From IMG/VR virus record IMGVR_UViG_3300018059_000013: a DNA stretch of 64,000 bases. One strand, 5' to 3'. The stretch comes from a virus. Every line of letters starts with the position of its first letter. The stretch's first letter is position 1. This document shows, in pieces, positions 1 to 64,000 of the stretch. The translations under genes and the position numbers were made by a program. The notes under the pieces are model-generated. The model was not told where the DNA came from. It ran no database searches and saw only the letters and a list, made by a program, of their open reading frames with translations.

Positions 1-1468
1 TGGCTAGCCGAACCAAGTTTCGGATCTGGCGTCCGTTGAACTTGTGTTCTGCGAGGGAATCGAGAGTATTCTTCTCGATCTTCAGCTTCGCTGCTTCGAC
101 CATCCGTTGCCAGATCTTGGACCTTGCCTCGTTGTCGAGAGCCTTGTAGTTCACCCGAGCCGTGATGCGCGAGGCGAAGGCGGGATCGATGACGTCGACC
201 CGGTTGGTAGTGAGGAAGAGGGTTCCATCGAAGCCGTCGAGGAATTTGAGGAAGGTACCGACGATGGCGTTGCGCTCGATGTTGTCGACATCTCGCTTGA
301 CTAGGAAGATATCTGCCTCATCGAGGAGAAGGACAGCGTTCCATTTGGAAGCTCTTTCAAGGACCAGCTTCAACTTGTCCTCGACGCTGTTGAGGTCAAT
401 ACCAATCTCGCCGACGTCAGCGACGTAGAGGGGACGCTTGGAGTGCTCGGCCACTGCCTCTGCTGTGAGGGTCTTGCCAACTCCTGGAGGGCCATCGGCA
501 AGAATGACAGTACCACCGTGTCGCCCTCCAAAGATGTCACCGAATTGACACTCGGGCCCGGCGGAGAAGATCCGCTCGAACAGAGTTCGCACGTTGTCGG
601 GCATGACGACCTTGCCGAACCCGGCCGTGTCGTAGACATGTTCTGAGATGTTGTCGATGTGTACGTAACAGTACGCTTTGCGCTCGAGGAGAAAGACTCG
701 GACGAGAGGAATCACCTCATCGGTGTTGTCCGTGTTGTTGTACCACATCGCTTCTTGGAGCTCGAGATCGCACTCGACGATGGCCTTCTTGGAATTCGCT
801 CCAATCTGCACCTCGACGGGCATAGATCCCCAGCGCGATTTCACGTAGACGGGACCCTTGATCTGGACGAGCTTCCCTGTCAGTTCGGTCTGCATGCGAT
901 GCATGCGGCCCACGTCATCTGCGTGCTTCTTGTAGCTCGTCTCGCTGAACGGTTTAAAGTTCGCCTTGCTGAGGATCTCCTGCAACGTGAGATCCTTGCC
1001 GGTGGGATCTTTCATGTGCTCCGGATAGATGCTACGGTACTCGTTCTCCGAGTTGTCTCCGTAGTTGAACCCGAAACCGATAGTGACGCGGTTGCCCCAC
1101 GAATCGTCGCGGTAGCCGAGCTCTTTGATCGTGACGGGAAAGGTGAGCTTGCCAGCCTGCACGCCCACGATGTCCCCGCGACCCGCGACACCGCTCAACA
1201 GCGCCATGACCTCTTGAAGCGTCTTCGCCGTCTTGTTGAGGATCTCGCTGTGCGGGGTCAGGTAGTTCTCGATGAGGATCTTGATCTGATGGCCGTCGGC
1301 GTAGTGATCCCTCAGCTTGTTGAGGAACGTCTTCGGGACCTTGTTGAGGTAGATCGTCTTTTGGTCGTCGTCTGCTTCGTACGAATAGACGTAGATCGCC
1401 TTTCGCTCGACGCCGGCTTCCTTCGCGATCTTCTGGATGAGAGTTTCTTCGATTTTTATCGTAAGCAT
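1..1468 (-). CDS. AAA+ ATPase, paralog A (partial; C-terminal ~25 aa run off the window start)
   Basis: Reverse translation gives Walker A GPPGVGKT, Walker B LLLDEADIF, sensor TTNR and an arginine finger PAFASRI (SpoVK/CbbX-like SRI motif). The ATPase half aligns closely with ORF 8812..10365. Start ATG at 1466-1468. Confidence 0.8.
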   Translation of the reverse strand, partial: MLTIKIEETLIQKIAKEAGVERKAIYVYSYEADDDQKTIYLNKVPKTFLNKLRDHYADGHQIKILIENYLTPHSEILNKTAKTLQEVMALLSGVAGRGDIVGVQAGKLTFPVTIKELGYRDDSWGNRVTIGFGFNYGDNSENEYRSIYPEHMKDPTGKDLTLQEILSKANFKPFSETSYKKHADDVGRMHRMQTELTGKLVQIKGPVYVKSRWGSMPVEVQIGANSKKAIVECDLELQEAMWYNNTDNTDEVIPLVRVFLLERKAYCYVHIDNISEHVYDTAGFGKVVMPDNVRTLFERIFSAGPECQFGDIFGGRHGGTVILADGPPGVGKTLTAEAVAEHSKRPLYVADVGEIGIDLNSVEDKLKLVLERASKWNAVLLLDEADIFLVKRDVDNIERNAIVGTFLKFLDGFDGTLFLTTNRVDVIDPAFASRITARVNYKALDNEARSKIWQRMVEAAKLKIEKNTLDSLAEHKFNGRQIRNLVRLA

Positions 1469-1603
1469 GGAACCTTTTTCGTTGAAGGAATGAGTTCGAC
1501 CCACGAAAGGCCGAGTGGAACCACGTCCAAAGAAGCGGAAGGAGGTCGGAACGCCCCTCTAGTTGTTCCCCCCGGCCTCTCGTGGGTCGAACCCACGTGT
1601 CTG

Positions 1604-2137
1604 CTAGAGGATGGCCGCGCCGGCGGAAACGGCTGCGACGACGGTCTCGGCCGTCTTCTCGGCCGCGAGAGCTTCGAGCTTCTGGACGCGAACCTCGTTG
1701 TCCGCCTGCATCCTGACGATCGTCTTGATGAGACGCTCGGGCACCTTGATCTGGTTGTTCTCGTGCGCTTCGACGATGAGCTTCAGAACGTCGTACGGGC
1801 GGGTCGAGGTGCCCTTCTCGTTGTCGAAGACGGGCTCATCGAGCGTGAGCTGAAAGTACTTCGGCACGGTTTCGGCTTCGAATGCCTCTCCGTCGCTCGA
1901 GCGACGTTGTTTCGTGCATGTCGTCCTCTTGAGTTCGAGACGCTTGGTGACGATGCGACGGGAACGTTCACGATCCCACGTGTCCTTCGGGTTCTGCAGC
2001 GCATACGCCACTTCGAGAACGTTCTCGTCGACGGTGTATGCAATTGCGCCGATGGGCGTTCCCTTTCGAGGGAGCGCGCTCGGCTCGGTAGAAGGTTGCG
2101 TAGACTTGGTGCGGAGATAAATGACAGTGTTGTTCAC
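1604..2137 (-). CDS. hypothetical protein (177 aa) between X-A and ATPase A
   Basis: Protein-like ORF on the dominant strand; no recognisable motif. Confidence 0.5.
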   Translation of the reverse strand: MNNTVIYLRTKSTQPSTEPSALPRKGTPIGAIAYTVDENVLEVAYALQNPKDTWDRERSRRIVTKRLELKRTTCTKQRRSSDGEAFEAETVPKYFQLTLDEPVFDNEKGTSTRPYDVLKLIVEAHENNQIKVPERLIKTIVRMQADNEVRVQKLEALAAEKTAETVVAAVSAGAAIL

Positions 2138-2393
2138 GATTGCCTCCTTACGGCATTCTGTTGTTGGATGGAGATGTTAGATGTCGTACGTTCAGAGAAC
2201 TTCTACAAAACGGACGATGTCGTTCTCGATCAGAAGAGAATCTTCTGCGGGCAGGTGTCGACGATCGCTGTAATTACGCCTCTAGAGCGTTTGGTGTTGA
2301 AGCGACATGACATGCCCACACTCTCGCACAAAGTGTGCGCTTCCTCCGGTGAGAGTCCTACGAGAACTTGGAGGAAGTCTGTCGGGAAATTGT

Positions 2394-3332
2394 TCAGCGA
2401 GAGGAAGCTCCTGCGACCATGCGCTGCGAGGAGGGTTTCTCTGTTTCGGAGTCTTCCTCTTCTGACTGTGCAATCTCGACGACGTTCGTCGTACGGCTCG
2501 GAGCCGACTCTGTGACTCGAACCTTGGAGTCCTCGGCAGAAGATCCGCCGGGAAGCATGTCCAGGGCCGATTCGATGATGGGGGTGATGTGATCGATGAC
2601 GTTGTCCGCGAGGAACGCGCCGGCCGTTGCCATGCCCGCGACGCGGAACTCCTTGGCAAGACGCTTGACCCGGGGATCCTTCTTGATCCTTGCAGGGGCG
2701 AGATACGTCAAAGCGTATCCCGCTGACGCCTGGATGAGTGCCTTCCCCATGGGGGTGTTGAGCACCGCCTCGACTCCCTCTTTCGTGGCGCCATCGCCCA
2801 TCTTGGCCATGATTGCGAGTGCAATCATCTGGCGTGCACCCTCGGCGATCTTATCGGAGGCGACCCGGAACGCTGCGTCGGCGCTGTCGCTCTTGAATGT
2901 TTCGAAGAACGATTGGGTTTCTTCTTCTGGAGCAGAAGGTCGGCTGGTGGTCGTTTTCACTTCTTTCTTACCCTTCTTGGACGCCAATTCGCCGATCTGA
3001 AACGCGTGTGCATGGGTAGTCGACAGGGTGAGAAACCTGTTCTTTCCCGCGTTCATCTGCACCTCCTCACGGAACTCCATGGCGACGCTCGCTATGGAGG
3101 GTGCGCCTGTGTAGTTCTGGTAACCCGCCGGTTGGGGGAGGTCTTTGTCGAACATGATGACCACGTTCCCCGCACCATTCGTGCCGATGATCTTGGCCTT
3201 GATCTTCCGAGCTTTCGATGCCTTGTGATCGAAGTAGTTCGTCGTGTCGATGGCAGTACCCGAGTTGGGCTTCTGCTGGATGAGAGTGATTTCTTTGCCC
3301 AGGTCCTTCGCCCAGGGATCCGTAATTGCCAT
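2394..3332 (-). CDS. X-family protein, copy A (312 aa); function unknown; paired with AAA ATPase A
   Basis: C-terminal ~150 aa (EGVEAVLNTPMGKALIQ...DPRVKRLAKEFRVAGMATAGAF...LDMLPGG) aligns with the C-terminus of ORF 12041..13192; ATG confirmed at 3330-3332. Confidence 0.7.
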   Translation of the reverse strand: MAITDPWAKDLGKEITLIQQKPNSGTAIDTTNYFDHKASKARKIKAKIIGTNGAGNVVIMFDKDLPQPAGYQNYTGAPSIASVAMEFREEVQMNAGKNRFLTLSTTHAHAFQIGELASKKGKKEVKTTTSRPSAPEEETQSFFETFKSDSADAAFRVASDKIAEGARQMIALAIMAKMGDGATKEGVEAVLNTPMGKALIQASAGYALTYLAPARIKKDPRVKRLAKEFRVAGMATAGAFLADNVIDHITPIIESALDMLPGGSSAEDSKVRVTESAPSRTTNVVEIAQSEEEDSETEKPSSQRMVAGASSR

Positions 3333-3662
3333 TGTTGAGCCGTTCCTTCTTTCTTCCGACCAGGGAGAAATCTTGCTGAGAGTTAAAAAACTAAAACTAG
3401 GGATCGTGAATGACGTGACAGAAGACGAGGTGCAAAAGGACCAATCGATATTTGGTATCGAATAGCTACCTGTATGAGTCCCGGTGTAGCTTTAGGAGGA
3501 ACGAGAGAGTTAGATGCCACCGGTACTGGCAGGGCGGAATGTGCTGGTACCCGTACCTCGTTAGATCCGTTAGATCCCGTTCCCAGTTCTGTCCAACCTC
3601 AATCAGCTTGAAGCATTTAGCGCACGCTTTCGTGCCGACCTCGGTAATGCCGTCCACCGATC

Positions 3663-7286: not shown

Positions 7287-7576
7287 TCGATCACCAAAGT
7301 TAGGACACGCAGTTAAGAAACGCCCGAAGGACGAAGGGAGAAGAGAGAACGAGAGAGGTCGACAATAAAGGCTGAGAGCTTCCCTCTTGCGGAGGATACT
7401 AAGTGCTCAGAGCTGAATGCTGCAAAGGGTCTAACTGCTGAATGCTGACTGCAGCGTCATTATCGTTATTGTTAATTGATTCCCTTTCGGGAGCCGGTAA
7501 TTACCTGTTCAGGGTAATGAATCAACCGTCTGTTCGTTCTCTTTCTCGCCTTCGCCCTCCGAACTCTGTTACCGGA

Positions 7577-8083
7577 TCAGGCCTTCAGGACCGTCCGATG
7601 ATTTGTCGTTTCGACGGCATCGTTGAGTGCGTCGAACTTCTCCTTGAAACTCTTGATCGCATCGGCCTGCTTGGCCTTGGGCAGATCGCAGCGGAACTCG
7701 TGCGTCGCCTTGACACGTTGCATGGCGTCGTTGTACTCGAACGAGTCTTCGTTCGATTTCTCATGGTCGCGCACAGGCAGACTTTCGATGAACTTGATCT
7801 GTCCCTTGAACTCCTCGAGTTGACGAGTGGCCTGCGAAAGCGTCATTTCCTTGCCGTCGTACTTCACCGTCGTGAGAGCATTGGTGACAGCGAGCCGGGA
7901 CTGAAGAGTCAGGAGCTCCGAACGTGCGGCCTGCGCCTTTTCCATGCAGTCGTTGAACTTGAACGCCGGCTCACGACCGACCTGGTACGACACCGATCCG
8001 GTAGCTCGTTGAGTGTGTTCGGCGATCTCGCCCTTGAGTTTCTTGATACGACGGAGTCCTTGAGAAATGGTCAGATCTGACAT
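7577..8083 (-). CDS. hypothetical coiled-coil protein (168 aa)
   Basis: Helical, heptad-like composition; the overlapping 212-aa plus ORF is an antisense shadow. Confidence 0.5.
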   Translation of the reverse strand: MSDLTISQGLRRIKKLKGEIAEHTQRATGSVSYQVGREPAFKFNDCMEKAQAARSELLTLQSRLAVTNALTTVKYDGKEMTLSQATRQLEEFKGQIKFIESLPVRDHEKSNEDSFEYNDAMQRVKATHEFRCDLPKAKQADAIKSFKEKFDALNDAVETTNHRTVLKA

Positions 8084-8365
8084 GCTGGTTATCCTATCCC
8101 CAATGAGCGATGGTTACTAAATGGATGGACATGTGATCCTTCCACGAGACGAAGTCGAAATAGATTTTCCCGTTGTGGAGAAAGACGGCCAATTCTCCTA
8201 TGAGTGATGGTCGAACATTTCCCATGTACAGGACGTAGTCACCTACGAGAACGCGTGATTGTCTGCATGCATCCCTTGCGACGTTTTGGTAGAGGTAGAA
8301 TTCCGTTCGTACATGGAAAAATTTTGGATCCGAATTAAAACCTGGTCATGTCTCAGGATGACGGA

Positions 8366-8575
8366 TCACGTCGGGAACTCTACGAGATGTCTCGCGCTTG
8401 TCTTCAGAGAAAGAAGGTCTCGATGAACGATTCCTTGGAAGAAGTACAAGGCATCATGATTAGAGATCGATCCCAAATACAGGATGATATCATCCTTGCG
8501 AACGGTGGTTATGTTGCTGGTTTCGTTGATGTTCGTATATAGGAAGATGTCTTCCATAACTCGAAGCAGGATCAT
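8366..8575 (-). CDS. hypothetical small protein (69 aa)
   Basis: Locally AT-rich; weak. Confidence 0.25.
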   Translation of the reverse strand: MILLRVMEDIFLYTNINETSNITTVRKDDIILYLGSISNHDALYFFQGIVHRDLLSLKTSARHLVEFPT

Positions 8576-8806
8576 TCACATCTTCTCGAAGTATCGATCA
8601 TCAATTAGGGCTTTTGGGCCCCACCGTCCGGGTAACCATCCGCGCCCGCCGCTGCTGAGCAGGTATGCGTGGTATCCCGCGGAGTTGTCATTCGCTATTA
8701 TCCACCCAAGGTAAACCACGATCCCACCCGCGGGGATTAAATACAATCTCGTGTGCGGTTTGAGTTGGATGTAGAGGCTAACGCCTTTGGTAGCTCGAAG
8801 CAACAT
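8576..8806 (-). CDS. hypothetical small protein (76 aa)
   Basis: Weak; contains an LIPAGGIVVYLG stretch reminiscent of the small-protein families. Confidence 0.25.
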   Translation of the reverse strand: MLLRATKGVSLYIQLKPHTRLYLIPAGGIVVYLGWIIANDNSAGYHAYLLSSGGRGWLPGRWGPKALIDDRYFEKM

Positions 8807-8811
8807 CAGGA

Positions 8812-10365
8812 TCAGGGCTTACGGGCATTGATCATCGCGATCTTTTCCAATTCAGCGGGGGGTAGTTCACCCGACGTGGGGTGGATGATGCGAACCAACC
8901 TCACGCAGTTACGAATCTCTCGGCCATTGAGATCGATCGCCGAGAGCGCAGAGATATCTCCCAAGGGGAGAATCTTCGCCTTGGCGAGCATGAGCTCCCA
9001 AATCTTCTGACGACGGTTGCTGTCGAGATCCGGGTAGTCCAACCTGACCGTGATGCGCGATGCGAACGCCGGGTCGAGCACCTCGGTGCGGTTCGTGGTC
9101 AGGAAGAGAGTTCCCCTGTACCGGTCGAGCACTCGAAGGAACACACCGACGATGGCGCTGCGCTCCAGCTCCTCCTTCGTACGTTCGGCCATGAAGATGT
9201 CGGCCTCGTCCAAGAGGAGGACGGCATTCCAACGGGTGACTCGTTGAAAGATCGTGTTGAGCGAGGATTCCACCTGGGCCACGTTGGTGCCGAGCTCGGT
9301 GAGATCGATCGAATACAGGGGACGCTTCATCGTGTGAGCGTACACCTCGGCCGTGAGGGTTTTTCCCACACCGGGTTTACCGGCCGCAAGGACGATGACT
9401 CCACCGTGGCGGTCGTTGAAAATGTCTCCGAAACCCTCGCTCCCGTTCCAGTTAAAGAGCGAGGTGAGGATGCTCTTCATGTTGTCGGGAAGAACGAGCC
9501 GCTCGTTCGCCTTCTCATCGTACTCGTACTTCTTCAGATTCTCGACGTCGATGTAAACGTATTCCTTCGTGTCGAGAGAGAAGCAACGTACCAGAGGTAG
9601 ATGTTTGTAACCAACCGATTGTTCGCTGTGGCGCGCACTTCTCGGATTGGATTCCATGTCAGGTTCGATCACGACACGTCCGATGTAGCCGAGAGGCAGA
9701 ACAACGGTCGGATCCCACCAAGTCGCGGACGTCTTGATTGCTTGACCGGTGCAAACGTACTGCGCACCCATTTCGTCCTTCGAGAGACGAATACACTCGA
9801 GGCGACTGGTCTTCCATCGAGTCAACGTTTCCTCTTGAATGGGACGCATGCCAGACGACGAAAGGATACTCCGAACGGTAGCTCCACCCATTTCAGAAAG
9901 GGTGTTCTCACCCAACGAGACAGATTTCGTGATGTTCTCCATACCGTCTGGCATCATGGCGATGGTCATGTTGGTGTAGAGGTACTTGCCAATGAACCCT
10001 TGTTCTAACTGACAGGCGGTCAGGAAGATCGGGTAGGATTTCCCAGCGAGCGTGAACTCGAGAGTCGGTTCGCTATCATCCTGAAGACGAATAAGGATGT
10101 TCGAAAACTTGATCAGGCTGGTCTGGGGTTCATCGAACTCCGCGTCGGAGACCCGATCACCCAAGAGCTTCCTGATCGCCTGTTTCGCCGCTGCACCGAG
10201 ACGCCCATTTCGGAGCAAAGCGCTGAGAATAGGCGGCGCGAGCTCTGCGAGCTTGACAGTCGTGTTTGCCGCGGCCGGATCCAAACCCACGATCTCCGTG
10301 TGTTCGATTCCCGCGTTCGCGGCGGCAGAGATGAGCTTCTTCGTATTGATCGAAAGTGATTCCAT
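8812..10365 (-). CDS. AAA+ ATPase, paralog B (517 aa): divergent N-terminal domain plus C-terminal classical AAA module
   Basis: Walker A GKPGVGKT, Walker B LLLDEADIF, TTNR, PAFASRI. ATG at 10363-10365 with AAGGA Shine-Dalgarno 8 nt upstream. Confidence 0.85.
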   Translation of the reverse strand: MESLSINTKKLISAAANAGIEHTEIVGLDPAAANTTVKLAELAPPILSALLRNGRLGAAAKQAIRKLLGDRVSDAEFDEPQTSLIKFSNILIRLQDDSEPTLEFTLAGKSYPIFLTACQLEQGFIGKYLYTNMTIAMMPDGMENITKSVSLGENTLSEMGGATVRSILSSSGMRPIQEETLTRWKTSRLECIRLSKDEMGAQYVCTGQAIKTSATWWDPTVVLPLGYIGRVVIEPDMESNPRSARHSEQSVGYKHLPLVRCFSLDTKEYVYIDVENLKKYEYDEKANERLVLPDNMKSILTSLFNWNGSEGFGDIFNDRHGGVIVLAAGKPGVGKTLTAEVYAHTMKRPLYSIDLTELGTNVAQVESSLNTIFQRVTRWNAVLLLDEADIFMAERTKEELERSAIVGVFLRVLDRYRGTLFLTTNRTEVLDPAFASRITVRLDYPDLDSNRRQKIWELMLAKAKILPLGDISALSAIDLNGREIRNCVRLVRIIHPTSGELPPAELEKIAMINARKP

Positions 10366-10424
10366 CTAAGTGTCCTTAAGTTTAAGAGGAGAAACGAGCG
10401 CGCCGTACGCTTACTTCCTCTTCT

Positions 10425-10643
10425 TCATTTTCCGTGACGCTCGCATGTTGATTTTCTCTTTGTACGAGCATACCCATTCGTCTCCTCAAATCCACCCGCT
10501 AACTTGACTCCGATCACCCAGCCAGCGAAGGCCATTACGATGTTCAGAAGGCCCCACATCCATCCCCACATAATGAATGCAGACGGAATGAAGATCGCCT
10601 GAAACAGAAAGACGACCCGAAATCTGTAGAGAAAATCTCTCAT
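10425..10643 (-). CDS. small membrane protein (72 aa, two predicted TM helices)
   Basis: Hydrophobic segments FLFQAIFIPSAFIMWGWMWGLLNIVMAFAGWVIGV. Confidence 0.4.
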   Translation of the reverse strand: MRDFLYRFRVVFLFQAIFIPSAFIMWGWMWGLLNIVMAFAGWVIGVKLAGGFEETNGYARTKRKSTCERHGK

Positions 10644-10945
10644 GTCTTTCCCGCAACTTCTCGGATCTGTGCAAGCACCCGGTCAGGATCGAGCTCTGCT
10701 ATTTTGATCTCTTCGAGTCTCTGCCACTCCCTCTGAACGTCATTCTCATTGTAGACGAAGACATCGCATGTCTTCCCACGGGAGGAAATGAGGATCGGCA
10801 TCGCGTTCTTCACAGAAGCGTACACGATGGATCCGTAGAGATTCGCAATCTGGACCCACGGCGTTTTGGAATACTCCAGCGCAGCTGAGGGGAACGTGCG
10901 GACGAAGTGGATACGAGATAGGAGCTCGATCCTGACCCCGCTCAT
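10640..10945 (-). CDS. hypothetical protein (101 aa)
   Basis: Minus-strand ORF inside module B. Confidence 0.4.
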   Translation of the reverse strand: MSGVRIELLSRIHFVRTFPSAALEYSKTPWVQIANLYGSIVYASVKNAMPILISSRGKTCDVFVYNENDVQREWQRLEEIKIAELDPDRVLAQIREVAGKT

Positions 10946-10948
10946 CCG

Positions 10949-11197
10949 CTATTCCGTACTGGTCGGAGTGGGATCGACCTCGACAGGGGAACAGATCGGA
11001 ATGACCCTCGGACCGACGCGTCCACGGGTGACATGGGGTGCCGCACCTCCCTTGCGACCTGCCTCTCGGGCCTCGGCAGCGTTGAACACGTGCGCCGTTC
11101 CCGCCGCGTGAGCAGCCTTTCCGCCCAGCGAAGCGATGAGCTTCACCTTGTTCGGATCCATCAAAGCAAATCCGCGCTTGTTCTTGTTCTCGTTCAT
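10949..11197 (-). CDS. KGG-repeat general-stress-protein-like small protein
   Basis: N-terminus GFALMDPNKVKLIASLGGKAAHAAGTAHVFNAAEAREAGRKGG resembles the KGG stress motif (YciG/GsiB type). Confidence 0.45.
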   Translation of the reverse strand: MNENKNKRGFALMDPNKVKLIASLGGKAAHAAGTAHVFNAAEAREAGRKGGAAPHVTRGRVGPRVIPICSPVEVDPTPTSTE

Positions 11198-11266
11198 GAC
11201 CGTTCCTCCTTGTGGTTACGGGGCAATCTCCCGCAAACTTATTAGCACATCCGAACAGACCGACCG

Positions 11267-11965
11267 CTAACCCTGGGTGCCGACTGCCTTGTCGTCCACG
11301 ACGACGGTGACCTTCTCGTCTTCTTTGACGAGCTTTCCAACTTCCGCGACGAAATCGTCGGACTTCTTCTGCATACCCTCTCCGACTTCCATCCGAGCGA
11401 AGCGACGGATCTGGATGTTCTCACCTAGCTTCGCGACGAGCGCCAGCCGAAGCTGTTCGATCGTCTGCTTGGGATGGTGGATCGACTCCTGCTTGGAGAG
11501 GCACGCTTCCGTGAACCACTTTTCCATCTTCTCGGTGAGGATCTTTTCATGCATCTCTGTGGGAGTGTCCTTGATCTGCTCCCTGAAGATCTCGCGCTGG
11601 GTGTTCGCTTCGACGCTGTTGTAGAGCTTCGACGATTCCATGTCGACGTACGTCGGGTTCATCCCGGCGACTTGCATCGCGACCTCTTCACAGAAGTTCA
11701 CGAAATCCTCGTTCTTGGCGACGAAGTCGGTCTCGCAGTTCACTTCGACGATGACTGCTATCCGATTTCCCAGATGGATGTACGGATGGATGCGACCCTC
11801 GCTTGCGATTCTCGTTCCCTTCGCCACCGCCTTCGCGATGCCCTTTTTCTGGAGGATGACGAGCGCACCGTTGATGTCTCCCTTCGCTTCTTCGAGGGCC
11901 GCCTTGCAGTCTCCCAGGGGAGCGTTGGATCGTTCTCTGACTTCTCTGACTTGTTCGATGGACAT
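11267..11965 (-). CDS. tsf: translation elongation factor Ts (EF-Ts), short form (~232 aa)
   Basis: MSIEQVREVRERSNAPLGDCKAALEEAKGDI...VEVNCETDFVAKNEDFV...LVAKLGENIQIRRFARMEVGEG...DDFVAEV matches EF-Ts N-terminal UBA-like and core motifs. Listed start 11971 is TTG; ATG is at 11965. Confidence 0.85.
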   Translation of the reverse strand: MSIEQVREVRERSNAPLGDCKAALEEAKGDINGALVILQKKGIAKAVAKGTRIASEGRIHPYIHLGNRIAVIVEVNCETDFVAKNEDFVNFCEEVAMQVAGMNPTYVDMESSKLYNSVEANTQREIFREQIKDTPTEMHEKILTEKMEKWFTEACLSKQESIHHPKQTIEQLRLALVAKLGENIQIRRFARMEVGEGMQKKSDDFVAEVGKLVKEDEKVTVVVDDKAVGTQG

Positions 11966-12040
11966 GCTCAAGCTCGCTTCTCTCGACTCCCGAGGATCGT
12001 CTCACCCCGGGAGGGGCTGGTGTTTCTTCCGAAGAGACGA

Positions 12041-13192
12041 TCACTTGCCCGCGACGGCCTTCTTCCCTTCCACGAGAACATCGGAGAGCTCGAGAAGCTC
12101 CTCCTCTGCCTTGACGTCCACCGCGGGGGACTCGGTCGGAGCGGCGATGCGTGCGTTGGTGACCGTCTTCTCCTCGCCACCGGGCAGCAGAGCGAGAGCG
12201 TCGTTGAGGACGGGCATCAGGTGCTCCATCACTCCACCGACGACCATGTCGAGACCTTCGGCCGTTCCCTGGATGCGGAACTCGGCGGCGAGCTTCTGGA
12301 GACGAGGATCAGCTGCCATACCTCCGACGTTCTGTCCCGCCATCGTGATCCCCCAACCCATGACGAGCTGGGTGAAAGCGACGCCGGCAGGAGACTTCAT
12401 GATGGCCTCCACGCTGGCGCCGTGCTCGGGACCGAGAGAGTTCTTCAGGACCTTGCACACGATGGTCGAACCACCCTGGCTGATCCGCTTGCCGGCGACT
12501 CGGTAGGCGGCCTCTTCGCCGTCGGACTTCACGATTTGGAACGCGGTCTTCTTCTCGGTCATTTTAGTCTCCTTCACTTCGGTTGCTGCTACTGCTACTG
12601 CGGGTTTGTCTTCCCAGGTTTCGGGGAGCGCTTTCGTGGACGACTTCTCTTCCAGATACTCCTTCGCTTCTTCGGGAAGGAGATCCGCCTCGGTCGCGTC
12701 GGCGACCTCTTCGGTCTGGCTGAGATGCCAGAAGGTGTGACCATTCAAAGCCGTTTTTCTTCCGAAGGAAACGTGATCCGAGACTGTGTACATCGTGTCG
12801 GGAGACAACCTGAACCCCTGAACCGGAGATCGCTTGTCCACCTTCAAAATGAAGTTCTTGTTGTCGTTTTGGCCGACGACTGTACCGACCATCGCACCGG
12901 CATTCGTCTGGAACTTGATCTGTTTTCCGATCTCGACCTTGCTCATGTAGACTCCATTCATGGTCCAAGTACAGTTCGGCCACGCCGAGCACCCAGTGAA
13001 TTCTTTCTTGGTGTATCTGTTAACTTTCGTGACGCCCAGAGCGCCGCACCTGGGGCACATCTTGGGAACTGGTGTCGCTGCGGCGGCAGCCTTTTCTTTG
13101 GCGGCTTTCTTCTTCTTCGCAGCGGTCGCATTCTTTTTACGGGTCGTGTCGCACGTCGAACACACCAATCCTTTCGGACACAAATAAGACAA
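12041..13192 (-). CDS. X-family protein, copy B (383 aa), with an N-terminal topoisomerase-I-type C4 zinc ribbon and K/A-rich linker
   Basis: CPRCGALGVTKVNRYTKKEFTGCSAWPNCTWT zinc ribbon; C-terminal 150 aa homologous to 2394..3332. Confidence 0.7.
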   Translation of the reverse strand: MSYLCPKGLVCSTCDTTRKKNATAAKKKKAAKEKAAAAATPVPKMCPRCGALGVTKVNRYTKKEFTGCSAWPNCTWTMNGVYMSKVEIGKQIKFQTNAGAMVGTVVGQNDNKNFILKVDKRSPVQGFRLSPDTMYTVSDHVSFGRKTALNGHTFWHLSQTEEVADATEADLLPEEAKEYLEEKSSTKALPETWEDKPAVAVAATEVKETKMTEKKTAFQIVKSDGEEAAYRVAGKRISQGGSTIVCKVLKNSLGPEHGASVEAIMKSPAGVAFTQLVMGWGITMAGQNVGGMAADPRLQKLAAEFRIQGTAEGLDMVVGGVMEHLMPVLNDALALLPGGEEKTVTNARIAAPTESPAVDVKAEEELLELSDVLVEGKKAVAGK

Positions 13193-15027: not shown

Positions 15028-15320
15028 AGCGTATCCTCTACGACTTTCAAGTACTTGTGGTCAATGTGAAAATTGATCGATGGTTCGATTAGGCAGAGCA
15101 ACCTCTGTTCGAACAGAACAGGGTACCTTCCGAAGGTCGATCCCACCTCAAAGGACATGTCTCCCAGGACAACAAGGTGACTTCTCTTCTGGATCTGGAC
15201 CGTGTTCAATCCGAACACCATCGTAGTTTGATCTCGGGCGACCAACCAGCTGAAGTTCGCAGCTATCACCCGTAGAAGAATTCCCTTGCGGAACGCTGGG
15301 AACACTGGAGCTTCGATCAT
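15024..15320 (-). CDS. hypothetical protein (98 aa)
   Basis: Start/stop overlap with neighbouring genes. Confidence 0.4.
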   Translation of the reverse strand: MIEAPVFPAFRKGILLRVIAANFSWLVARDQTTMVFGLNTVQIQKRSHLVVLGDMSFEVGSTFGRYPVLFEQRLLCLIEPSINFHIDHKYLKVVEDTL

Positions 15321-16309
15321 TCGCTCCTCTGAGAGGGTTGAACGTACGGAATTCCGAGAATCTTGTAGACGTCTTCTTCGTTGGTACCACCGATGTGTTT
15401 GGCGACGATTTCTTCACCGCACATCGCGACTTCCGGTCCGTAGACCGTCTTACGAGCATCCAGGTCCACTCCGTCCGCGACGAGGTAGATTCCGTACTCG
15501 TTCATGCGCATCCCTCTGGACTTCAACATGCCCCGCACGCGCTGGTTATGCATCTTGTTGCCGGTGGCGTAGTTGAGCGCGGCGCCCCAGTGCCAACGAT
15601 TCACTATCCAAAGATCGCATTGGATGCGTTGTGCTTCGTCGTTGACGAGGATGGCGGACTTAATGGGACCGCTCCATAGAACCTGACCGAGCTGTTCGAA
15701 AGCTCTTTTGATCTGAGCATCGGTGGCGAACTTACCGGTATCGTCGTGTTCTACGACGATGTCGATGTCTTTGCAAGTTGCGGTGTGCCGACGGATAGAT
15801 CCACAGATCTCGACCGATTTCACTCCCGACGAGAGAAGGGAATTTTTGATTCGATTGGCGATGGTGAGAGCGATCTCGATCGGAACTCGTTTGGCTTGGG
15901 ATTCCGCCGAGAGGACGTTCTTTGTCAAACTCGCGGAGAGCTCTCCCTGATGAGCTCTGAAGACGAGCTCTTCGAAGGAGGTAATACCCTGTTCGAAGAG
16001 AGCCCCGGCGGTCTTGGGCCCGACACCTGGAACGTTCATCAGGGAGAGGATCTCGACAGGCCATCTCGTGGAGAGATCCTCCAATCGAGTTGATGTTCCT
16101 CTGATGAAAAACTCCTTGATCGTGGCTCCAATGCTCGGTCCCACTCCAGGGATCTTCATGGGAGTACGAAGTTCTTCGTTTGTCCTGCCGCGTACTTGCA
16201 GCGACGCGTTGAGGTACGCTCGTATTTTGTGCGGGTTCTCCGCATCTAGATCCATGAGCCTGGCGACGGCTTCTAAGTGTTCTGACAGTTTGACCGAATC
16301 GTCGCTCAT
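15317..16309 (-). CDS. family X DNA polymerase (Pol beta-like, 330 aa, no PHP domain)
   Basis: Two helix-hairpin-helix motifs (IPGVGPSIGATI, VPGVGPKTAGAL) and a nucleotidyltransferase motif (ICGSIRR...KDIDIVV). Confidence 0.8.
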   Translation of the reverse strand: MSDDSVKLSEHLEAVARLMDLDAENPHKIRAYLNASLQVRGRTNEELRTPMKIPGVGPSIGATIKEFFIRGTSTRLEDLSTRWPVEILSLMNVPGVGPKTAGALFEQGITSFEELVFRAHQGELSASLTKNVLSAESQAKRVPIEIALTIANRIKNSLLSSGVKSVEICGSIRRHTATCKDIDIVVEHDDTGKFATDAQIKRAFEQLGQVLWSGPIKSAILVNDEAQRIQCDLWIVNRWHWGAALNYATGNKMHNQRVRGMLKSRGMRMNEYGIYLVADGVDLDARKTVYGPEVAMCGEEIVAKHIGGTNEEDVYKILGIPYVQPSQRSE

Positions 16310-32750: not shown

Positions 32751-32822
32751 CGATCCCGGCGAGGTTCGAACTCGCGTAAACGGAGTGAAAATCCGCTATC
32801 CTAACCGCTAGATGACGGGACC
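32751..32822 (-). tRNA. tRNA-Glu (anticodon TTC)
   Basis: Cloverleaf: acceptor GGTCCCG/CGGGATC, T-arm GCGAG-TTCGAAC-CTCGC, anticodon arm GCGGA-TTTTCAC-TCCGT; CCA not encoded. Confidence 0.8.
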
Positions 32823-32833
32823 GTGAAGTTCAG

Positions 32834-32905
32834 CTGGTCGAGGCGGAATCGAACCACCGGCGCCCCTTTTCCGGGGCGTACTCGTGCCACTTGAGCTACC
32901 GACCA
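32834..32905 (-). tRNA. tRNA-like gene with a non-canonical anticodon arm (type undetermined)
   Basis: Good acceptor, D-arm (G18 G19) and T-arm (GGTGG-TTCGATT-CCGCC). The anticodon region ACGCCCCGGAAAAGGGGCGCC can only form a 6-nt (GGAAAA) or 8-nt (CGGAAAAG) loop, never 7. Confidence 0.5.
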
Positions 32906-35710: not shown

Positions 35711-35782
35711 TAGGGGATGAAGGATTCGAACCTCCATACGGCGGGTCAAAGCCGCCTATTCTAGCCGTTGAATTAATCCCCT
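35711..35782 (-). tRNA. tRNA-Gln (anticodon TTG)
   Basis: Acceptor AGGGGAT/ATCCCCT, D-stem ATTC/GAAT, anticodon arm GGCGG-CTTTGAC-CCGCC, T-arm GGAGG-TTCGAAT-CCTTC. Confidence 0.8.
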
Positions 35783-38633: not shown

Positions 38634-38887
38634 TCTAGCTCCCCAAATCGGAATCTCAAGTTTGGGAGGGAAGAACGCACCGTTCGACCGACCCAGAGTT
38701 GAACGCCCGATTGCGTTCTTTTTAGCCCGGTGTTTCTCCGGGTATGCGTGCGCTAAGCGCTGTCTTTGTCCCTAGGCTTGCTGCTTGGCGGTGCTTCGGG
38801 ATCGATATCGTGACGCCGTCGAGGAAGGAAAATTTCAGCTCCCATAGAAGGACTTCTTCATGATGTTTCTCCTTTCTCAAAGATTCG

Positions 38888-38964
38888 CGGTTCATCCAAG
38901 ATTCGAACTTGGAACCGAACGGGTTCTAACACCCGAGCGCTCTACCAATTTGAGCTAATGAACC
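38888..38964 (-). tRNA. tRNA-like gene (77 nt) with an irregular anticodon arm, type undetermined
   Basis: Perfect acceptor GGTTCAT/ATGAACC, D-arm GCTC...GAGC, T-arm CCAAG-TTCGAAT-CTTGG. The anticodon region CGGGT-GTTAGA-ACCCG gives a 6-nt loop (or 8-nt with a 4-bp stem). Confidence 0.5.
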
Positions 38965-41385: not shown

Positions 41386-41453
41386 GATGAGAGCCGCAGA
41401 TCTGGATCGAACAGACGACAACCGCTTTACGAAAACGGGGCTCTACCTCTGAG

Positions 41454-41933
41454 CTACTGCGGCGAAGGATATTTGTAGTACTTTTTTCGTAGTATCAATC
41501 GCGATGTCTTAAATTTTCCTCTGTTTTTTCCAGCGTACGAATCAGTTTGCGCGTGGCAATTAGGACAGATGAATCTGAGATTTTCTATCGAATTGATCTC
41601 AGGATTTCCGTCAACGTGATCCATTTGAATGGGAGCGGATTTCCCACACCATTCTTCGATCCCGCAAATTTCGCATTTTACTCCTCTTTCAGAGAGGAGT
41701 CTCGTCTTTCTAGTACCATCTTTTTTGACATCTTCGAATGCCAGTGCGTGCAATCGTTTGTGACCGCCCAGCCGATATCCAGTCTCAAAATGCTTTCTGC
41801 AGATATTGTACGTATGAGTTTTGTCAGATGGTGGAATTTTCCACGAAGGATCTCTTCGTGTGTGTCCACTACGATGTCCTCCTAAACGAGAAGAATTCTC
41901 GAACTCTTTCCCATGCACGTCGCATGAAAACAT
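41454..41933 (-). CDS. HNH endonuclease with N-terminal C2H2-type zinc fingers, copy 2
   Basis: MFSCDVHGKEF...GGHRSGH; CEICG...QMDHVDGN...NLRFICPNCH. Paralog of 35215..35676. Confidence 0.75.
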   Translation of the reverse strand: MFSCDVHGKEFENSSRLGGHRSGHTRRDPSWKIPPSDKTHTYNICRKHFETGYRLGGHKRLHALAFEDVKKDGTRKTRLLSERGVKCEICGIEEWCGKSAPIQMDHVDGNPEINSIENLRFICPNCHAQTDSYAGKNRGKFKTSRLILRKKYYKYPSPQ

Positions 41934-45783: not shown

Positions 45784-46304
45784 TTCACCCGGTATTGACG
45801 AAGACTGTTCTTACTATAGACACTGAAGGGAGCATGCGTCTTTTTCATCCACCCATCGGGGACGATGTCTGCAGCATCACTGTTGTGGACGAAGATCACG
45901 AGATCGTAATCGAATTCCTTGTTCAGGCTCTCGTGGTTGCCGTCCGATAGGACGAAGAGTTTCCCATCGGGGGACATCTTCCGTGCGTACAGAATCGCCT
46001 GGCGGAGGTCCGTCCCTCCGGTCTGGGTCTTGCGCACATTGATGATGTCTTCGTACGTCGGATTTCCGAGGAACGAAACTGCGAAGGACGTATGATGCCA
46101 GCCCACCACGCAGTCACCGGGACGGAAGCGATGGGAGATGTATCTCGCCATGTCCATGAACATGCTACCCGATGTGCTGCCCGAGTAATCGATGAGAAAC
46201 ACGGTCTTTTCGTTGTTTTCCATAATGTCTACTTTCCTTCGTTCCAGGCACCCACGAGCGGAAGAACGATGATCGTTTTGAGAGAAACTTTCGACTCGAT
46301 CCAC
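45780..46304 (-). CDS. von Willebrand factor A (vWA) domain protein with an intact MIDAS motif (174 aa)
   Basis: VFLIDYSGSTSGS (DxSxS), TGGTDLRQAI, and LSDGN at the end of the domain. Confidence 0.6.
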   Translation of the reverse strand: MDRVESFSQNDHRSSARGCLERRKVDIMENNEKTVFLIDYSGSTSGSMFMDMARYISHRFRPGDCVVGWHHTSFAVSFLGNPTYEDIINVRKTQTGGTDLRQAILYARKMSPDGKLFVLSDGNHESLNKEFDYDLVIFVHNSDAADIVPDGWMKKTHAPFSVYSKNSLRQYRVK

Positions 46305-46591
46305 GCCTTTACCTTCTCACGGTCGAGATCGGTGCAATGGACATTCTTGTAGTGCATCTTACCGTTCGACTTACGTCGGGTCGGCACGCACTTGGTGACG
46401 AATTGTTCCATGCGCTCGCTGCTGGTGCAACCGCCGCTACCGAGATCGTTAGCCTCAAGGTACTCGAGGAATTCGTCGAGGAAATCGTCGACCTCGCTCT
46501 CGGAGAGCAGAGGGAAGAACACGCACAGGATTTCGAATCCCTTGTAGTCGAATTCACGGAGGTGTTTTTTCTTTCGGAGCCTGCGATTCAT
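46229..46591 (-). CDS. YggL (DUF469)-family protein
   Basis: MNRRLRKKKHLREFDYKGFEI...DDFLDEFLEYLEANDLGSGG matches the YggL N-terminal signature RRLRKKLH..EF..GF. Confidence 0.6.
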   Translation of the reverse strand: MNRRLRKKKHLREFDYKGFEILCVFFPLLSESEVDDFLDEFLEYLEANDLGSGGCTSSERMEQFVTKCVPTRRKSNGKMHYKNVHCTDLDREKVKAWIESKVSLKTIIVLPLVGAWNEGK

Positions 46592-46863
46592 CACAACCAC
46601 TCATCCTTGACGAACATCCATTCGCTGCGAAATTTGCCAGCAGGCGTCAGAACCCGACCCGTCCAACAATCATACTGATCGTTGTACTTGGTGCAAACAT
46701 CGACGACTAACATGATCTCGTCCGGCATCATGCTATTTTGATCACATTTGATGATGAAAACATCGCCGAGCTGCGGAGGGTTCGATTGAGATCGAACTGT
46801 TGAATTGAATCTTCGGATCACATCCGCTCCCAATCGCTCATCGTCCAATCCCAAGGATTCCAA
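46591..46863 (-). CDS. small-family protein (90 aa, QLGDVFII)
   Basis: ORF only. Confidence 0.35.
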   Translation of the reverse strand: MESLGLDDERLGADVIRRFNSTVRSQSNPPQLGDVFIIKCDQNSMMPDEIMLVVDVCTKYNDQYDCWTGRVLTPAGKFRSEWMFVKDEWL

Positions 46864-56097: not shown

Positions 56098-56354
56098 CAG
56101 CCGTTGTTCTTGAACGTCGGAAATGCCTGGTCGAACGCTTCCTGCGCCTTCTGGAGCTCTGCCATGCACGCTCCGTACTCGACCCAGTTCTTGGCCTTGA
56201 GAGCCTTCTTCGTCGCAATGGAGAGAGTCTCCGCAAGCCGCATAAACATCACGAGTGGACCTTCCATCGGCGAACGCTTGACGACATTCACCGTGACAGT
56301 GATCGGCTTCTGCTTGGTTGTCGACTTCTTCGTAACCTTCTTCTTCGTTTTCAT
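56097..56354 (-). CDS. hypothetical K-rich protein (85 aa)
   Basis: ORF only. Confidence 0.4.
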   Translation of the reverse strand: MKTKKKVTKKSTTKQKPITVTVNVVKRSPMEGPLVMFMRLAETLSIATKKALKAKNWVEYGACMAELQKAQEAFDQAFPTFKNNG

Positions 56355-57346
56355 GATCGTCTCCTTCTCATTCCGAATACGATCATCGCTACCATCAGGA
56401 TGATCGACGTGATGTTAGTTCTTGCGTGCACCATTCGGCATCCACCGGCATCGATACGACGATCTGGATGTGGAACGGGTCCACTCTCCTCCAGGTTAAA
56501 CGTCGTTCCCGCGAAGAGGAACGCATCCTTGAAGAGCGAATCGAAACCTGCAGTGGTCGTGTAAACATGCCCGAAGTTGTCTGAACATTCTCCGCCGCGC
56601 GAGACGACGCCGATGATCGCTCCTGTAGCTTCGCTGATGGCGGGACCACCGCTATCACCCTGGCACGATCCTACGTCCACCTCGAATTCGTGCTCTCCGA
56701 GGATGAAACCCGTAGAGGTTTTCGTTCGACCTTGTGTTAGGACGCTAACGTTGCCTCGGCGGAATCGACTTCCGATGGGTACATTCTTATCGTTTTTCCC
56801 ATACCCAACTGACAGAACCTTTTCTCCCATAGCAGCAGGAGACTTAAGGCGGACAGCCAACACATCGATATTAGTTATCGGAGTTTCGAGCACGATGATT
56901 GCGATGTCGTGATCGCACAAGTTTTTTCCGTTCGTGGTGAATATCGCAATAGCTCGTGAACGAGGTGGATCGGAAAAGTGGGGAGTCGCACCGGAATAGA
57001 CTCCTATGCTCGTCGGGTCCATGTTTCCCTCCACGTGGTCTCCGTTCAAGCTGTCGCTGTTTTGGTTACAGGCGATTTGGTACGTGATAACTTTCGAAAT
57101 GCAGTGTCTCGCTGTGAGAACGACGTTGGAAGCGATGAGTGTACCTGTACAAAGGCCGAACGTATCACCGTTGATCGTTCGAATAGCGACCACACTCTCG
57201 TTGGAACTCGCGTCGTTATCTTCCATTCCTCCGAAGATGGCGGGTTTCGAAGTGTTTGATCCGATTTGGATGATTTCATTCTCTGAAGATTCGATCGTGC
57301 ATCCCGATAGAATCAGAGAGATAATCGGGATGCACGATCGAATCAT
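56351..57346 (-). CDS. trypsin-like (S1) serine protease lipoprotein with a MYXO-CTERM-like C-terminal sorting tail
   Basis: Lipoprotein signal MIRSCIPIISLILSGC; catalytic triad contexts LTARHC, DIAII, GDSGGP; C-terminal GGCRMV plus TM helix plus RRRR. Confidence 0.75.
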   Translation of the reverse strand: MIRSCIPIISLILSGCTIESSENEIIQIGSNTSKPAIFGGMEDNDASSNESVVAIRTINGDTFGLCTGTLIASNVVLTARHCISKVITYQIACNQNSDSLNGDHVEGNMDPTSIGVYSGATPHFSDPPRSRAIAIFTTNGKNLCDHDIAIIVLETPITNIDVLAVRLKSPAAMGEKVLSVGYGKNDKNVPIGSRFRRGNVSVLTQGRTKTSTGFILGEHEFEVDVGSCQGDSGGPAISEATGAIIGVVSRGGECSDNFGHVYTTTAGFDSLFKDAFLFAGTTFNLEESGPVPHPDRRIDAGGCRMVHARTNITSIILMVAMIVFGMRRRRS

Positions 57347-60057: not shown

Positions 60058-61614
60058 TCACTTGAAACGCATGCATCGTCCGCCGACCAGAGCGCTCTTC
60101 GCTTCAGGGCGTTGAACTCTCAGAATCGTTTCTCCCGGCATGTACTGCACGTTAAGATCGGAACGGGAGCTGCCATAGCCGATACCTCGACCTTTCAGTG
60201 CGAAGAGTCCGTTGGAAAGATCCAGGGTGGTTTCGCTGAGGTTGCCAGCGAGATCCATCCAGACCTCCGCTCCAACGGAGACACGATCTGCAACCACCCT
60301 TCCGGGTGCTGCGATCTGCCAGGACTTGTCGCTGTTCGAAGCTCCGAGATTTGGGTAGTGGTAGTTGTGCTGGTTGAGAAAGCTCCCAATAGTGGGTAGC
60401 ACGTCTCCCGCATCGAATGTCGCATTGATCACGTTGACATCGGCGCATCGACCTCCCGACTGGACAGTTCCGTCAAGGATATCTCCGAGAAGAGCTCCAT
60501 GGTTGTCGTACTGCGAGCCACACCCGGAGACCGAGTTCGGACGGTTCGGGCTTGCTGTCACGAAGTCTACCACCTCGGAGGTCGCGAGCTGTCCACCATC
60601 CCAGTGGCAGAAGGCTGCGAGCATGGCGTTGGTGACGCAGTTCATCGACTTGACATCGAGAAATTCCTGCGCAGGGATGACCTTACCACTCGAGTCCAGA
60701 GCGTCAGCTCTCGGGACCTCGCCGTTCTTTGTTTGGACGTTCGCAGGGTAGTAGTACGTTGGGAATCCGTACGCGGTGGTATAGGTGCCACAGTTGTTGC
60801 CGTGGAGGTCGGCGAAGACCTGCCCACCGAACTGATGGTTGAGCCCGACGCTGACGTTTTGATCGTTCGTCGGAGGAAGGATGACACCCGGACCCGCTTG
60901 CTCTTGGGTCTGCCCATCGTGCCGAGGATCTCCTAGAAGGAGCCGGGGGATCGTGATGCTCCCACCCTCGTAGTCAGAGGGCAGGTAGTTGTTCCAGTTG
61001 GAGTTCCAGTACGTCGGCTTGTTGAAGTTGATCCATGACTTGATGTCGGGCTTGTTAGACATCTGCTGGGTGATGTCAGCGATGAAGGCTCTGATTCGTC
61101 CTGCAGTCACCTCGTACTTGTCGAGGTATGTTATCTTACCGGGATGGTTCGGGTCATTGTAGCCTGGCACCGGGAGGCTCCGGCAACAGCTTTCGTGGGC
61201 TGTTCCGGACTCACCGACCTCACCTCTTCCACAGGTGTCTCCGCCGAGGTGATTGAGGCAGCTCTTCTGGTCTGCGGGAAGACAGATGCCCTGGTATCCG
61301 CACGCGTGGGTCGCGCAGTCGGAGCGCTGGACGCAACTCTGACCGATTGGACACTGCACGAAGGCGAGACCCCCACAGTCGACGCCGGTCTCACCCGCAT
61401 TCTTGATCCCATCCGAGTGGGTCTCTCCCGGAGGGAACGCGTCTGACATGGGAGCATCCGAACCTGCATCCGGGATCGATCCATCCTCACCGGGAAGAGG
61501 GTCTGCATCTTCGTTCGGGATCGGAGTGTCGGGTTTCGGTGTCGTGTCGACGGAGACGTTGCATGCGAGCAAACCACTCGCTGCGAGCAGGAAAAAAATC
61601 GTCCGCTTCTTCAC
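60058..61614 (-). CDS. FGE-sulfatase (SUMF1/EgtB/PvdO-like) domain lipoprotein (518 aa)
   Basis: Lipoprotein signal MKKRTIFFLLAASGLLAC; C-terminal GYGSSRSD...ALVGGRCMRF resembles the FGE-domain end motif. Confidence 0.65.
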   Translation of the reverse strand: MKKRTIFFLLAASGLLACNVSVDTTPKPDTPIPNEDADPLPGEDGSIPDAGSDAPMSDAFPPGETHSDGIKNAGETGVDCGGLAFVQCPIGQSCVQRSDCATHACGYQGICLPADQKSCLNHLGGDTCGRGEVGESGTAHESCCRSLPVPGYNDPNHPGKITYLDKYEVTAGRIRAFIADITQQMSNKPDIKSWINFNKPTYWNSNWNNYLPSDYEGGSITIPRLLLGDPRHDGQTQEQAGPGVILPPTNDQNVSVGLNHQFGGQVFADLHGNNCGTYTTAYGFPTYYYPANVQTKNGEVPRADALDSSGKVIPAQEFLDVKSMNCVTNAMLAAFCHWDGGQLATSEVVDFVTASPNRPNSVSGCGSQYDNHGALLGDILDGTVQSGGRCADVNVINATFDAGDVLPTIGSFLNQHNYHYPNLGASNSDKSWQIAAPGRVVADRVSVGAEVWMDLAGNLSETTLDLSNGLFALKGRGIGYGSSRSDLNVQYMPGETILRVQRPEAKSALVGGRCMRFK

Positions 61615-61631
61615 AGTGACCTCGATTCAGA

Positions 61632-63784: not shown

Positions 63785-64000
63785 TCACTCCCAGTACGTA
63801 CCGATGAGCTCGTGCGTTTGAGGGAAGTGCTCTTGAAGCTCATCGGGAACTCCTCCGTCGTCATCTCCGGTGATGAGGAGCTCGCATTCCTTTTCTGTTG
63901 GTAGACGACCGACCACACCAAAGTCAGTACGAAGCACATCCTTCAGAATGATCTTATCCAAGACGATATGAGAGTCCGAGAACGCCCAGTTGCACAGGGA
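63785..64000 (-). CDS. hypothetical protein, C-terminal fragment (N-terminus beyond the window end)
   Basis: Reverse translation gives ...VLRTDFGVVGRLPTEKECELLITGDDDGGVPDELQEHFPQTHELIGTYWE*. Confidence 0.3.
   Translation of the reverse strand, partial: SLCNWAFSDSHIVLDKIILKDVLRTDFGVVGRLPTEKECELLITGDDDGGVPDELQEHFPQTHELIGTYWE

Follow-up and report, generated by a model that had tools for sequence, protein, structure and literature searches.

Huge phages have been reported to carry "elongation factors G, Tu and Ts", with a proposed role in maintaining translation efficiency during infection (Al-Shayeb et al. 2020, Nature 578:425, PMC7162821). The GenBank supplements of that study annotate tsf, the gene for elongation factor Ts (EF-Ts), in other huge phages both at full length (194 aa, 307 aa) and as N-terminal fragments. 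Here we describe a tsf gene at positions 11267–11965, minus strand, of a 64,000-nt stretch of viral DNA, IMG/VR record IMGVR_UViG_3300018059_000013, which we refer to in its whole length as the window. Judged from its sequence, the 232-aa product is probably, with a likelihood that we put at roughly 0.6, a functional phage EF-Ts that acts by nucleotide exchange on host EF-Tu, sustaining elongation during infection. An earlier reading of this DNA from its letters alone (the original prediction) implied that a phage EF-Ts would be new, which it is not: phage-borne EF-Ts has been known since 2020, and the present genome appears to be part of that dataset. We found no individual discussion of this tsf or its lineage in PMC7162821. 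Added here are a monophyletic clade of phage EF-Ts, a recurring gene order in which tsf lies between a gene that we call X-B and a KGG-repeat gene, a clade-specific motif and tail, contact residues that have been kept, evidence of purifying selection and several separate captures of tsf among IMG/VR contigs.

Among cellular proteins, the EF-Ts of Thermus thermophilus (1AIP, 1TFE) has the same layout, a UBA-like domain followed by a single core subdomain with the TDFV motif, and is 38–40% identical to the window protein end to end. Unlike Thermus EF-Ts, the window protein has an extra, E. coli-like C-terminal helix ('EGxxKKxxDFxAEV') and a 20-aa tail, and its gene is phage-borne and standalone, outside an rpsB–tsf operon. 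A further difference is that the cysteine in the Thermus segment 'RRFCRFELG', which forms an inter-subunit disulfide, aligns with an alanine in the window segment 'RRFARMEVG'. Of all cellular sequences, the chromosomal short EF-Ts of Myxococcota and other phyla come closest, at 43–53% identity, and they have the same C-terminal helix; by contrast with the window gene, theirs lie between rpsB and pyrH in all 4 genomes tested, and the phage clade branches separately from them. The locus resembles those of the translation factors of huge phages (PMC7162821), with an EF-Ts gene among phage-type and translation-related genes, outside a cellular operon and on what is very probably a phage genome of >200 kb.

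The original prediction also pointed to the host factor of the Q-beta replicase (3MMP, 3AGP, 4R71), which belongs to the same protein family and is among the phmmer matches. Q-beta, however, recruits the long-form EF-Ts of its host into an RNA replicase and does not itself encode an EF-Ts. Since the carrier here is very probably a double-stranded DNA (dsDNA) phage with a DNA polymerase, and no RNA-dependent RNA polymerase family is found among the Pfam matches of the window genes, this analogy does not apply.

An intact short-form EF-Ts

The original prediction placed a compact EF-Ts of 232 aa at 11267–11965, and an open reading frame (ORF) lies exactly there, from an ATG start to a stop codon included in the coordinates. 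Its product passes the profile cut-offs of both PF00889 (E=3.5e-24, 86 bits against 27; Pfam) and the equivalog TIGR00116 'tsf' (165.4 bits against 104.05; NCBIfam). In a phmmer search of the Protein Data Bank (PDB), residues 3–195 align with residues 4–195 of 1AIP_C, the 196-aa T. thermophilus EF-Ts (E=7.8e-36). Long forms such as that of E. coli align to the window protein only piecewise, with a poor global superposition (root-mean-square deviation (r.m.s.d.) ~24 Å), which identifies it as the short, Thermus-type form. It has a UBA-like N-terminal domain at about residues 1–52 and one core subdomain carrying the TDFV motif (T79–V82), without a duplicated subdomain C or a coiled-coil insert. 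A C-terminal helix, 'EGMQKKSDDFVAEV', aligns with E. coli residues 260–281 and is followed by the clade-specific tail of about 20 aa, in which model confidence is low. At the level of sequence, these results confirm a genuine, intact gene for a bacterial-type EF-Ts.

Structure prediction agrees with this assignment. An AlphaFold2 monomer model built from 98 short EF-Ts has a mean predicted local distance difference test score of 84.9, with the final ~25 residues poorly predicted. Searched with Foldseek, the model matches the EF-Tu-bound Thermus EF-Ts chains 1AIP_C and 1AIP_H with target-normalised template-modelling (TM) scores of 0.85–0.89 and an r.m.s.d. of 2.1–2.5 Å, with 1AIP_H at E=1.8e-17, a TM score of 0.89 and an r.m.s.d. 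of 2.1 Å. The isolated dimerisation domain 1TFE likewise gives a target-normalised TM score of 0.89, so that the dimerisation-domain fold is present. Helices at residues 3–13, 17–26 and 31–51 make up the N-terminal domain; the UBA-like N-terminus and core motifs that the original prediction described are intact.

Interface residues with EF-Tu have been named for the EF-Ts of E. coli (K51, G54, D80, F81, I125 and G126, together with the TDFV motif, whose role at the interface is described) and of Mycobacterium tuberculosis (R13, K24, D77 and N82) (PMC9529903). We mapped contact residues through alignments of PDB chains and of short EF-Ts, leaving E. coli G54 unmapped because its placement is ambiguous. 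E. coli R12, K23, K51, D80, F81 and G126 correspond to R10, K21, K49, D80, F81 and G181 of the window protein, identical in every case, and M. tuberculosis N82 is kept as N85. The sole change among the mapped contacts is conservative, from E. coli I125 to L180. R10 and K21, both in the UBA-like domain, are invariant in the alignment, and the loop that separates them reads SNAPLG instead of TGAGMM. Across the 98 short EF-Ts there is no variation at T79, D80 or F81, V82 is conserved to at least 90%, and the window protein keeps the residue in all 24 of the invariant columns. The contacts on which the original prediction depended have therefore not been lost. The predicted activity of the protein is guanine-nucleotide exchange on EF-Tu, and it would probably form a homodimer of the Thermus type.

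The carrier is very probably a huge phage

A protein identical to the window EF-Ts is encoded on NCBI contig CACVEL010000001.1 (GCA_902730045.1; 350,418 bp), and the window corresponds to positions 286403–350402 of that record, its last 64 kb. The carrier is very probably a huge dsDNA phage, ER_PHAGE_49_29, of at least 350 kb and from East River sub-soil; their exactly equal length makes the link strong but indirect. ER_PHAGE_49_29 is described as a 350,418-bp genome, scaffold PLM4_65_coex_sep16_scaffold_0, from sub-soil saprolite at East River, Colorado (Al-Shayeb et al. 2020, PMC7162821). The scaffold is present in the terminase and major-capsid trees of that study, and among its genes a DNA polymerase is listed. 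Of its taxonomic profile, 82% is unknown and 7.6% falls to Proteobacteria, and it has no CIR tag, that is, it was not circularised by the authors (PMC7162821).

The window itself looks like an accessory arm of such a phage. Of its roughly 117 genes, 111 lie on the minus strand, and the majority are shorter than 150 aa and unassigned; the few Pfam or PHROG matches are to AAA, HNH, DHH phosphoesterase, VapE-type helicase/primase, PolX, WecG glycosyltransferase, Band_7 and trypsin families. Only a handful of window genes match any PHROG, so that PHROGs provides little independent evidence for a phage, and no phage structural gene lies inside the window. Three transfer RNA genes, all on the minus strand, were found by ARAGORN and by the Rfam model RF00005: tRNA-Glu (TTC) at 32751–32822 (57.4 bits), tRNA-Gln (TTG) at 35711–35782 (60.6 bits) and tRNA-Thr (CGT) at 41392–41463 (56.2 bits). 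Two further ARAGORN predictions, labelled 'tRNA-???' with two-base anticodons, at 32833–32905 and 38887–38964 (minus strand), fall below the Rfam tRNA threshold and are left uncounted. The first of these adjoins tRNA-Glu, and both may be degenerate or unusual tRNA-like elements.

The original prediction had left two branches, a phage or other large virus and a chromosome with an unusual second tsf copy. Membership of the published terminase and capsid trees, the architecture of small ORFs on one strand and the tRNAs support a phage, and the chromosomal branch therefore falls away. It had also noted that tsf stands alone, and this holds for the stretch surveyed: called genes from position 1267 to the window end contain no Pfam match to Ribosomal_S2, to AA_kinase (pyrH) or to RRF. 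As a control, in a scan of one genome per GTDB species, we examined four of the closest cellular tsf loci (two Myxococcota metagenome-assembled genomes, Haliangium and Nannocystaceae), and all four are flanked by Ribosomal_S2 upstream and AA_kinase (pyrH) downstream.

A cellular or artefactual origin, either a chromosome or plasmid with a rearranged rpsB–tsf operon or a mis-assembled tsf, is consistent with the lack of structural genes in the window and with the genome not having been circularised. No rpsB, pyrH or frr is found in the 64 kb, however, and the ordinary chromosome with rpsB nearby on which the original prediction would have failed is not what we see. The same tsf neighbourhood recurs in independent assemblies of other samples, the scaffold has its place in the published phage trees, and small, co-oriented, unassigned ORFs are typical of phages. 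We regard such an origin as extremely unlikely.

One assembly observation concerns the end of the genome. An independent ENA contig, ERZ27267795 k141_484889 (322,706 bp), matches the final 17,650 bp of the window at 100% identity and stops 2 nt past the end of the NCBI contig (window end, 63983–64000). Since both assemblies end at this point, a genome terminus or the boundary of a terminal repeat may lie there.

A phage EF-Ts clade under purifying selection

No cellular EF-Ts exceeds ~53% identity to the window protein, the closest being proteins of ~218 aa at 43–53%. Nearer relatives, at 71–76% identity, come from other samples (P0002–P0004 and P0122 of our comparison set). In a bootstrapped neighbour-joining tree, the window protein and P0002–P0004 form a clade with 100% support, and a wider clade that adds P0007 and a 133-kb IMG/VR contig (L012) has 87% support; with midpoint rooting, the phage clade sits on a long branch. 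The phylogeny that the original prediction had proposed as a check thus yields a separate phage clade, for which a sister relation to Polyangia/Myxococcota receives no more than 15% bootstrap support. We accordingly dropped a Myxococcota origin and place Myxococcota short EF-Ts among the nearest sequences (~50%). An ancestor of the phage lineage probably took tsf from a bacterium and the lineage kept it, and the capture is old, because the protein is only ~50% identical to any cellular EF-Ts. The C-terminal tail is common to P0001 and P0002.

Two syntenic contigs could be read, one of 11.7 kb from Logan SRR21686422 (L002) and one of 11.9 kb from groundwater sample ERR2108712 (L120). Both have the gene order of the window: WecG, PolX, further genes, X-B, tsf, KGG and a gene for a 101-aa protein. 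They have 17 and 20 genes in common with the window, respectively, and the proteins of L002 are 56–88% identical to their counterparts. Between the window tsf and its 71%-identical orthologue in L002, the ratio of nonsynonymous to synonymous substitution rates (dN/dS, Nei–Gojobori) is 0.275 at a dS of ~0.95. Residues 1–105, the EF-Tu-binding part, are ~86% identical between these two proteins; the helical middle (106–150) and the tail have diverged. At least 5 clade members have an intact ORF. Because the synteny recurs and dN/dS is 0.275, we conclude that the ancestor shared by these phages already had tsf and that purifying selection has since maintained it.

The shared locus and the selection on it exclude mis-assembly and make a functionless passenger unlikely. 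Huge phage genomes do carry many sporadic host-derived genes, and the weak ribosome-binding site of tsf and two substitutions at invariant positions (K134T and G145E) are what a passenger taken from a host, and not selected for any function, might display. Against this stand the ORF kept intact in the clade, a locus conserved among phages whose proteins are 56–88% identical, a dN/dS of 0.275 at a dS of ~0.95 and a divergence from every cellular EF-Ts that speaks for an old capture. A passenger gene is in our estimation decidedly improbable.

Two side observations touch these relatives. In L120, a TnpB/IS605 OrfB-type gene (PF01385, PF07282) at 7482–8624 is inserted just upstream of X-B and tsf; the insertion is missing at that site in the window and in L002, and the position of tsf is unchanged. 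The locus of P0007, a 53%-identical relative, can be followed on L010 (Logan SRR29078280, 1–3382) and L011 (SRR29078222, 1–1522), in the order RNA ligase (PF09414), tsf, a 130-aa gene, a tRNA_bind protein (PF01588), a 452-aa gene and a YggL-like protein.

EF-Ts in other large phages

A profile-guided scan of IMG/VR returned 30 viral contigs with tsf, up to 536 kb in length. At 28 of the 30 loci the gene is full-length with small or non-operon neighbours, and at one (L041) the match is partial. Contig L015, in which pyrH follows tsf, looks like host sequence; among the larger flanking ORFs tested at the remaining loci there is no S2 or pyrH. These viral EF-Ts share 32–46% identity with the window protein and are scattered over several parts of the tree, from which we conclude that large phages have captured tsf repeatedly.

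One set of these contigs (L018–L034 and L039–L040; GC 44–49%, up to 279 kb) encodes EF-Ts of 194–202 aa with the motif 'GAGM(M/I)LCKEAL' and has similar small flanking genes. Its closest match in the comparison set is a tandem-duplicated EF-Ts, P0006, at ~57% identity. It represents another viral lineage of tsf, distinct from the present one and with more members.

Other phage collections gave little. PHROGs v4 has no family matching EF-Ts, and a megablast search of INPHARED with window positions 1–25000 returned no match. A tblastn search of INPHARED with the window EF-Ts gave only matches below 40% identity, several of which look host-derived or mislabelled; one partial match lies in a 595-kb uncultured phage. 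With no PHROG family and no close INPHARED relative, tsf is confined, among the phage collections searched, to uncultured large phages. In the literature searched, we came across no experimental characterisation of a phage EF-Ts.

Proposed role in host translation

In the mechanism we favour, the phage EF-Ts would bind host EF-Tu–GDP, probably as a Thermus-type homodimer. Phe81 of the TDFV motif would enter the nucleotide pocket, and the Asp and Phe of the motif would together displace the nucleotide, making GDP release faster. The pool of EF-Tu–GTP–aminoacyl-tRNA would in this way be raised or maintained and, with the ternary-complex pool kept up, elongation could keep pace with the synthesis of phage proteins. 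It is in this that we infer the benefit of tsf to the phage. The 'translation takeover' of the original prediction is already a published hypothesis for such genes, and we infer it here for this one.

The gene context is consistent with a role in translation. Besides the three tRNAs, the window encodes a YggL-type 50S-ribosome-binding protein (46229–46600, minus strand; 123 aa, PF04320 E=6.1e-16, no PHROG match), its second translation-associated gene, 35 kb from tsf, and the phage EF-Ts may act alongside both. In L010 and L011, tsf stands beside RNA ligase, tRNA_bind and YggL genes in what appears, from its gene content, to be a small module for translation and tRNA repair carried by a mobile element; the YggL homologue of L010, at 3098–3382, is ~2 kb from tsf and 37.5% identical to that of the window (tblastn).

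Several features weigh against a plain housekeeping activity of this kind. The phage clade has the N-terminal loop 'SNAPLGDCK' in place of 'TGAGMMDCK', and departs from cellular short EF-Ts at sites where these are at least 97% conserved (L9V, T13S, R39Q, K48A, E123Q and K163H). K134T and G145E, at otherwise invariant positions, are found in the window protein alone. Because of these clade-specific and window-specific substitutions, the binding properties of the protein may differ from those of housekeeping EF-Ts. The ribosome-binding site of tsf (GAGAGAAG) is also weak beside the AGGAGG of the gene that follows.

The divergent N-terminal motif could reflect co-evolution with an EF-Tu other than that of the host. 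EF-Ts might then serve a phage-encoded EF-Tu, or tune EF-Tu for the phage tRNAs present in the window, rather than acting on the general host pool, and EF-Tu as well as EF-Ts has been reported in huge phages (PMC7162821). No gene of the 64-kb window or of the related contigs matches GTP_EFTU, however, the other 286 kb of the genome being unsearched, and we consider a dedicated partner of this sort quite improbable.

The same N-terminal changes bear on a role in counter-defence, in which phage EF-Ts would mainly protect or re-partition host EF-Tu rather than boost elongation, either by masking surfaces or by depleting the GDP-bound form. Both the Lit protease and type IV Thoeris cleave EF-Tu, and Avs7 specifically draws in its open, GDP-type form and so strengthens defence (PMC13581612). 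EF-Ts binds the same GDP-type form that Avs7 recruits. The clade-specific changes in the N-terminal domain, at sites that are otherwise conserved, would fit such a role. So would the RNA ligase gene upstream of tsf in L011, as phage RNA ligases are generally known to repair tRNAs cut by host nucleases, a function that a review raises for jumbo phages. Yet the TDFV motif and all invariant residues are kept, as expected of a working exchange factor, and the genes next to tsf in the window include none that we could assign to defence or anti-defence. We think counter-defence unlikely.

A related proposal extends to the whole phage clade (the window protein, P0002–P0004 and, loosely, P0007 and the IMG/VR contig L012), whose members, with their altered N-terminal loop and added tail, may be specialised modulators of host EF-Tu rather than simple boosters of elongation. 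They might shield EF-Tu from Lit, type IV Thoeris and Avs7 or, alternatively, form mixed dimers with the short EF-Ts of the host that redirect the EF-Tu pool to phage tRNAs. We give this a slim chance. Nucleotide exchange on host EF-Tu remains the role that we prefer.

Neighbouring genes and other features of the window

The gene upstream of tsf, X-B (12041–12946, minus strand), encodes a 301-aa protein with no Pfam or PHROG match. Downstream, in the same co-oriented string, lie a gene for an 82-aa KGG-repeat protein of general-stress type (10949–11197, minus strand; PF10685 E=2.9e-8), which has the strong AGGAGG ribosome-binding site mentioned above, and that for the 101-aa protein (10640–10945, minus strand), conserved in L002 and L120. 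A promoter and terminator scan near tsf found nothing above shuffle expectation.

Beyond these lies an AAA+ ATPase gene (8812–10365, minus strand; 517 aa). A second AAA gene starts at 1468, runs off the window start and is 40% identical to the first (E=1e-81), and a paralogue of X-B lies at 2394–3332 (minus strand; 31% identity to the 12041–12946 gene, E=5e-23). The AAA and X-B pair is thus present twice on the minus strand, at 2–3332 and 8812–12946, and the second copy encloses tsf, the KGG gene and two small genes. The original prediction had set tsf between a KGG protein and X-B within a duplicated AAA module; these neighbours are borne out, and the module is real, because both AAA ATPases are paralogues. 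The AAA ATPase at 8812–10365 is missing from the syntenic contig L002 and is therefore not tied to tsf.

Two further gene groups of the window are recorded here. The PolX gene at 15317–16309 (minus strand) encodes a family X (Pol beta/lambda-like) DNA polymerase of 330 aa, 82% identical in L002 and without a PHROG match. In the region 56351–57346 / 60058–62678 (minus strand) there is a trypsin-like serine protease with a hydrophobic N-terminus and a hydrophobic C-terminal segment, beside two large cysteine-rich proteins (518 and 348 aa) with signal-peptide-like or lipoprotein-like starts and no family match. As a set of secreted or envelope genes, this is unusual for the arm of a phage.

Implications

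This locus is a clean and well-supported example of how a core translation factor can reside stably in a lineage of phages, away from the operon in which it is universally found and maintained by purifying selection. The compact 232-aa protein and its relatives are convenient subjects for biochemical tests, as we found no biochemically tested phage EF-Ts in the literature. The discovery that huge phages encode EF-Ts dates to 2020; the several separate captures of EF-Ts by different large phages support the published view of elongation as a step of translation in which huge phages invest.

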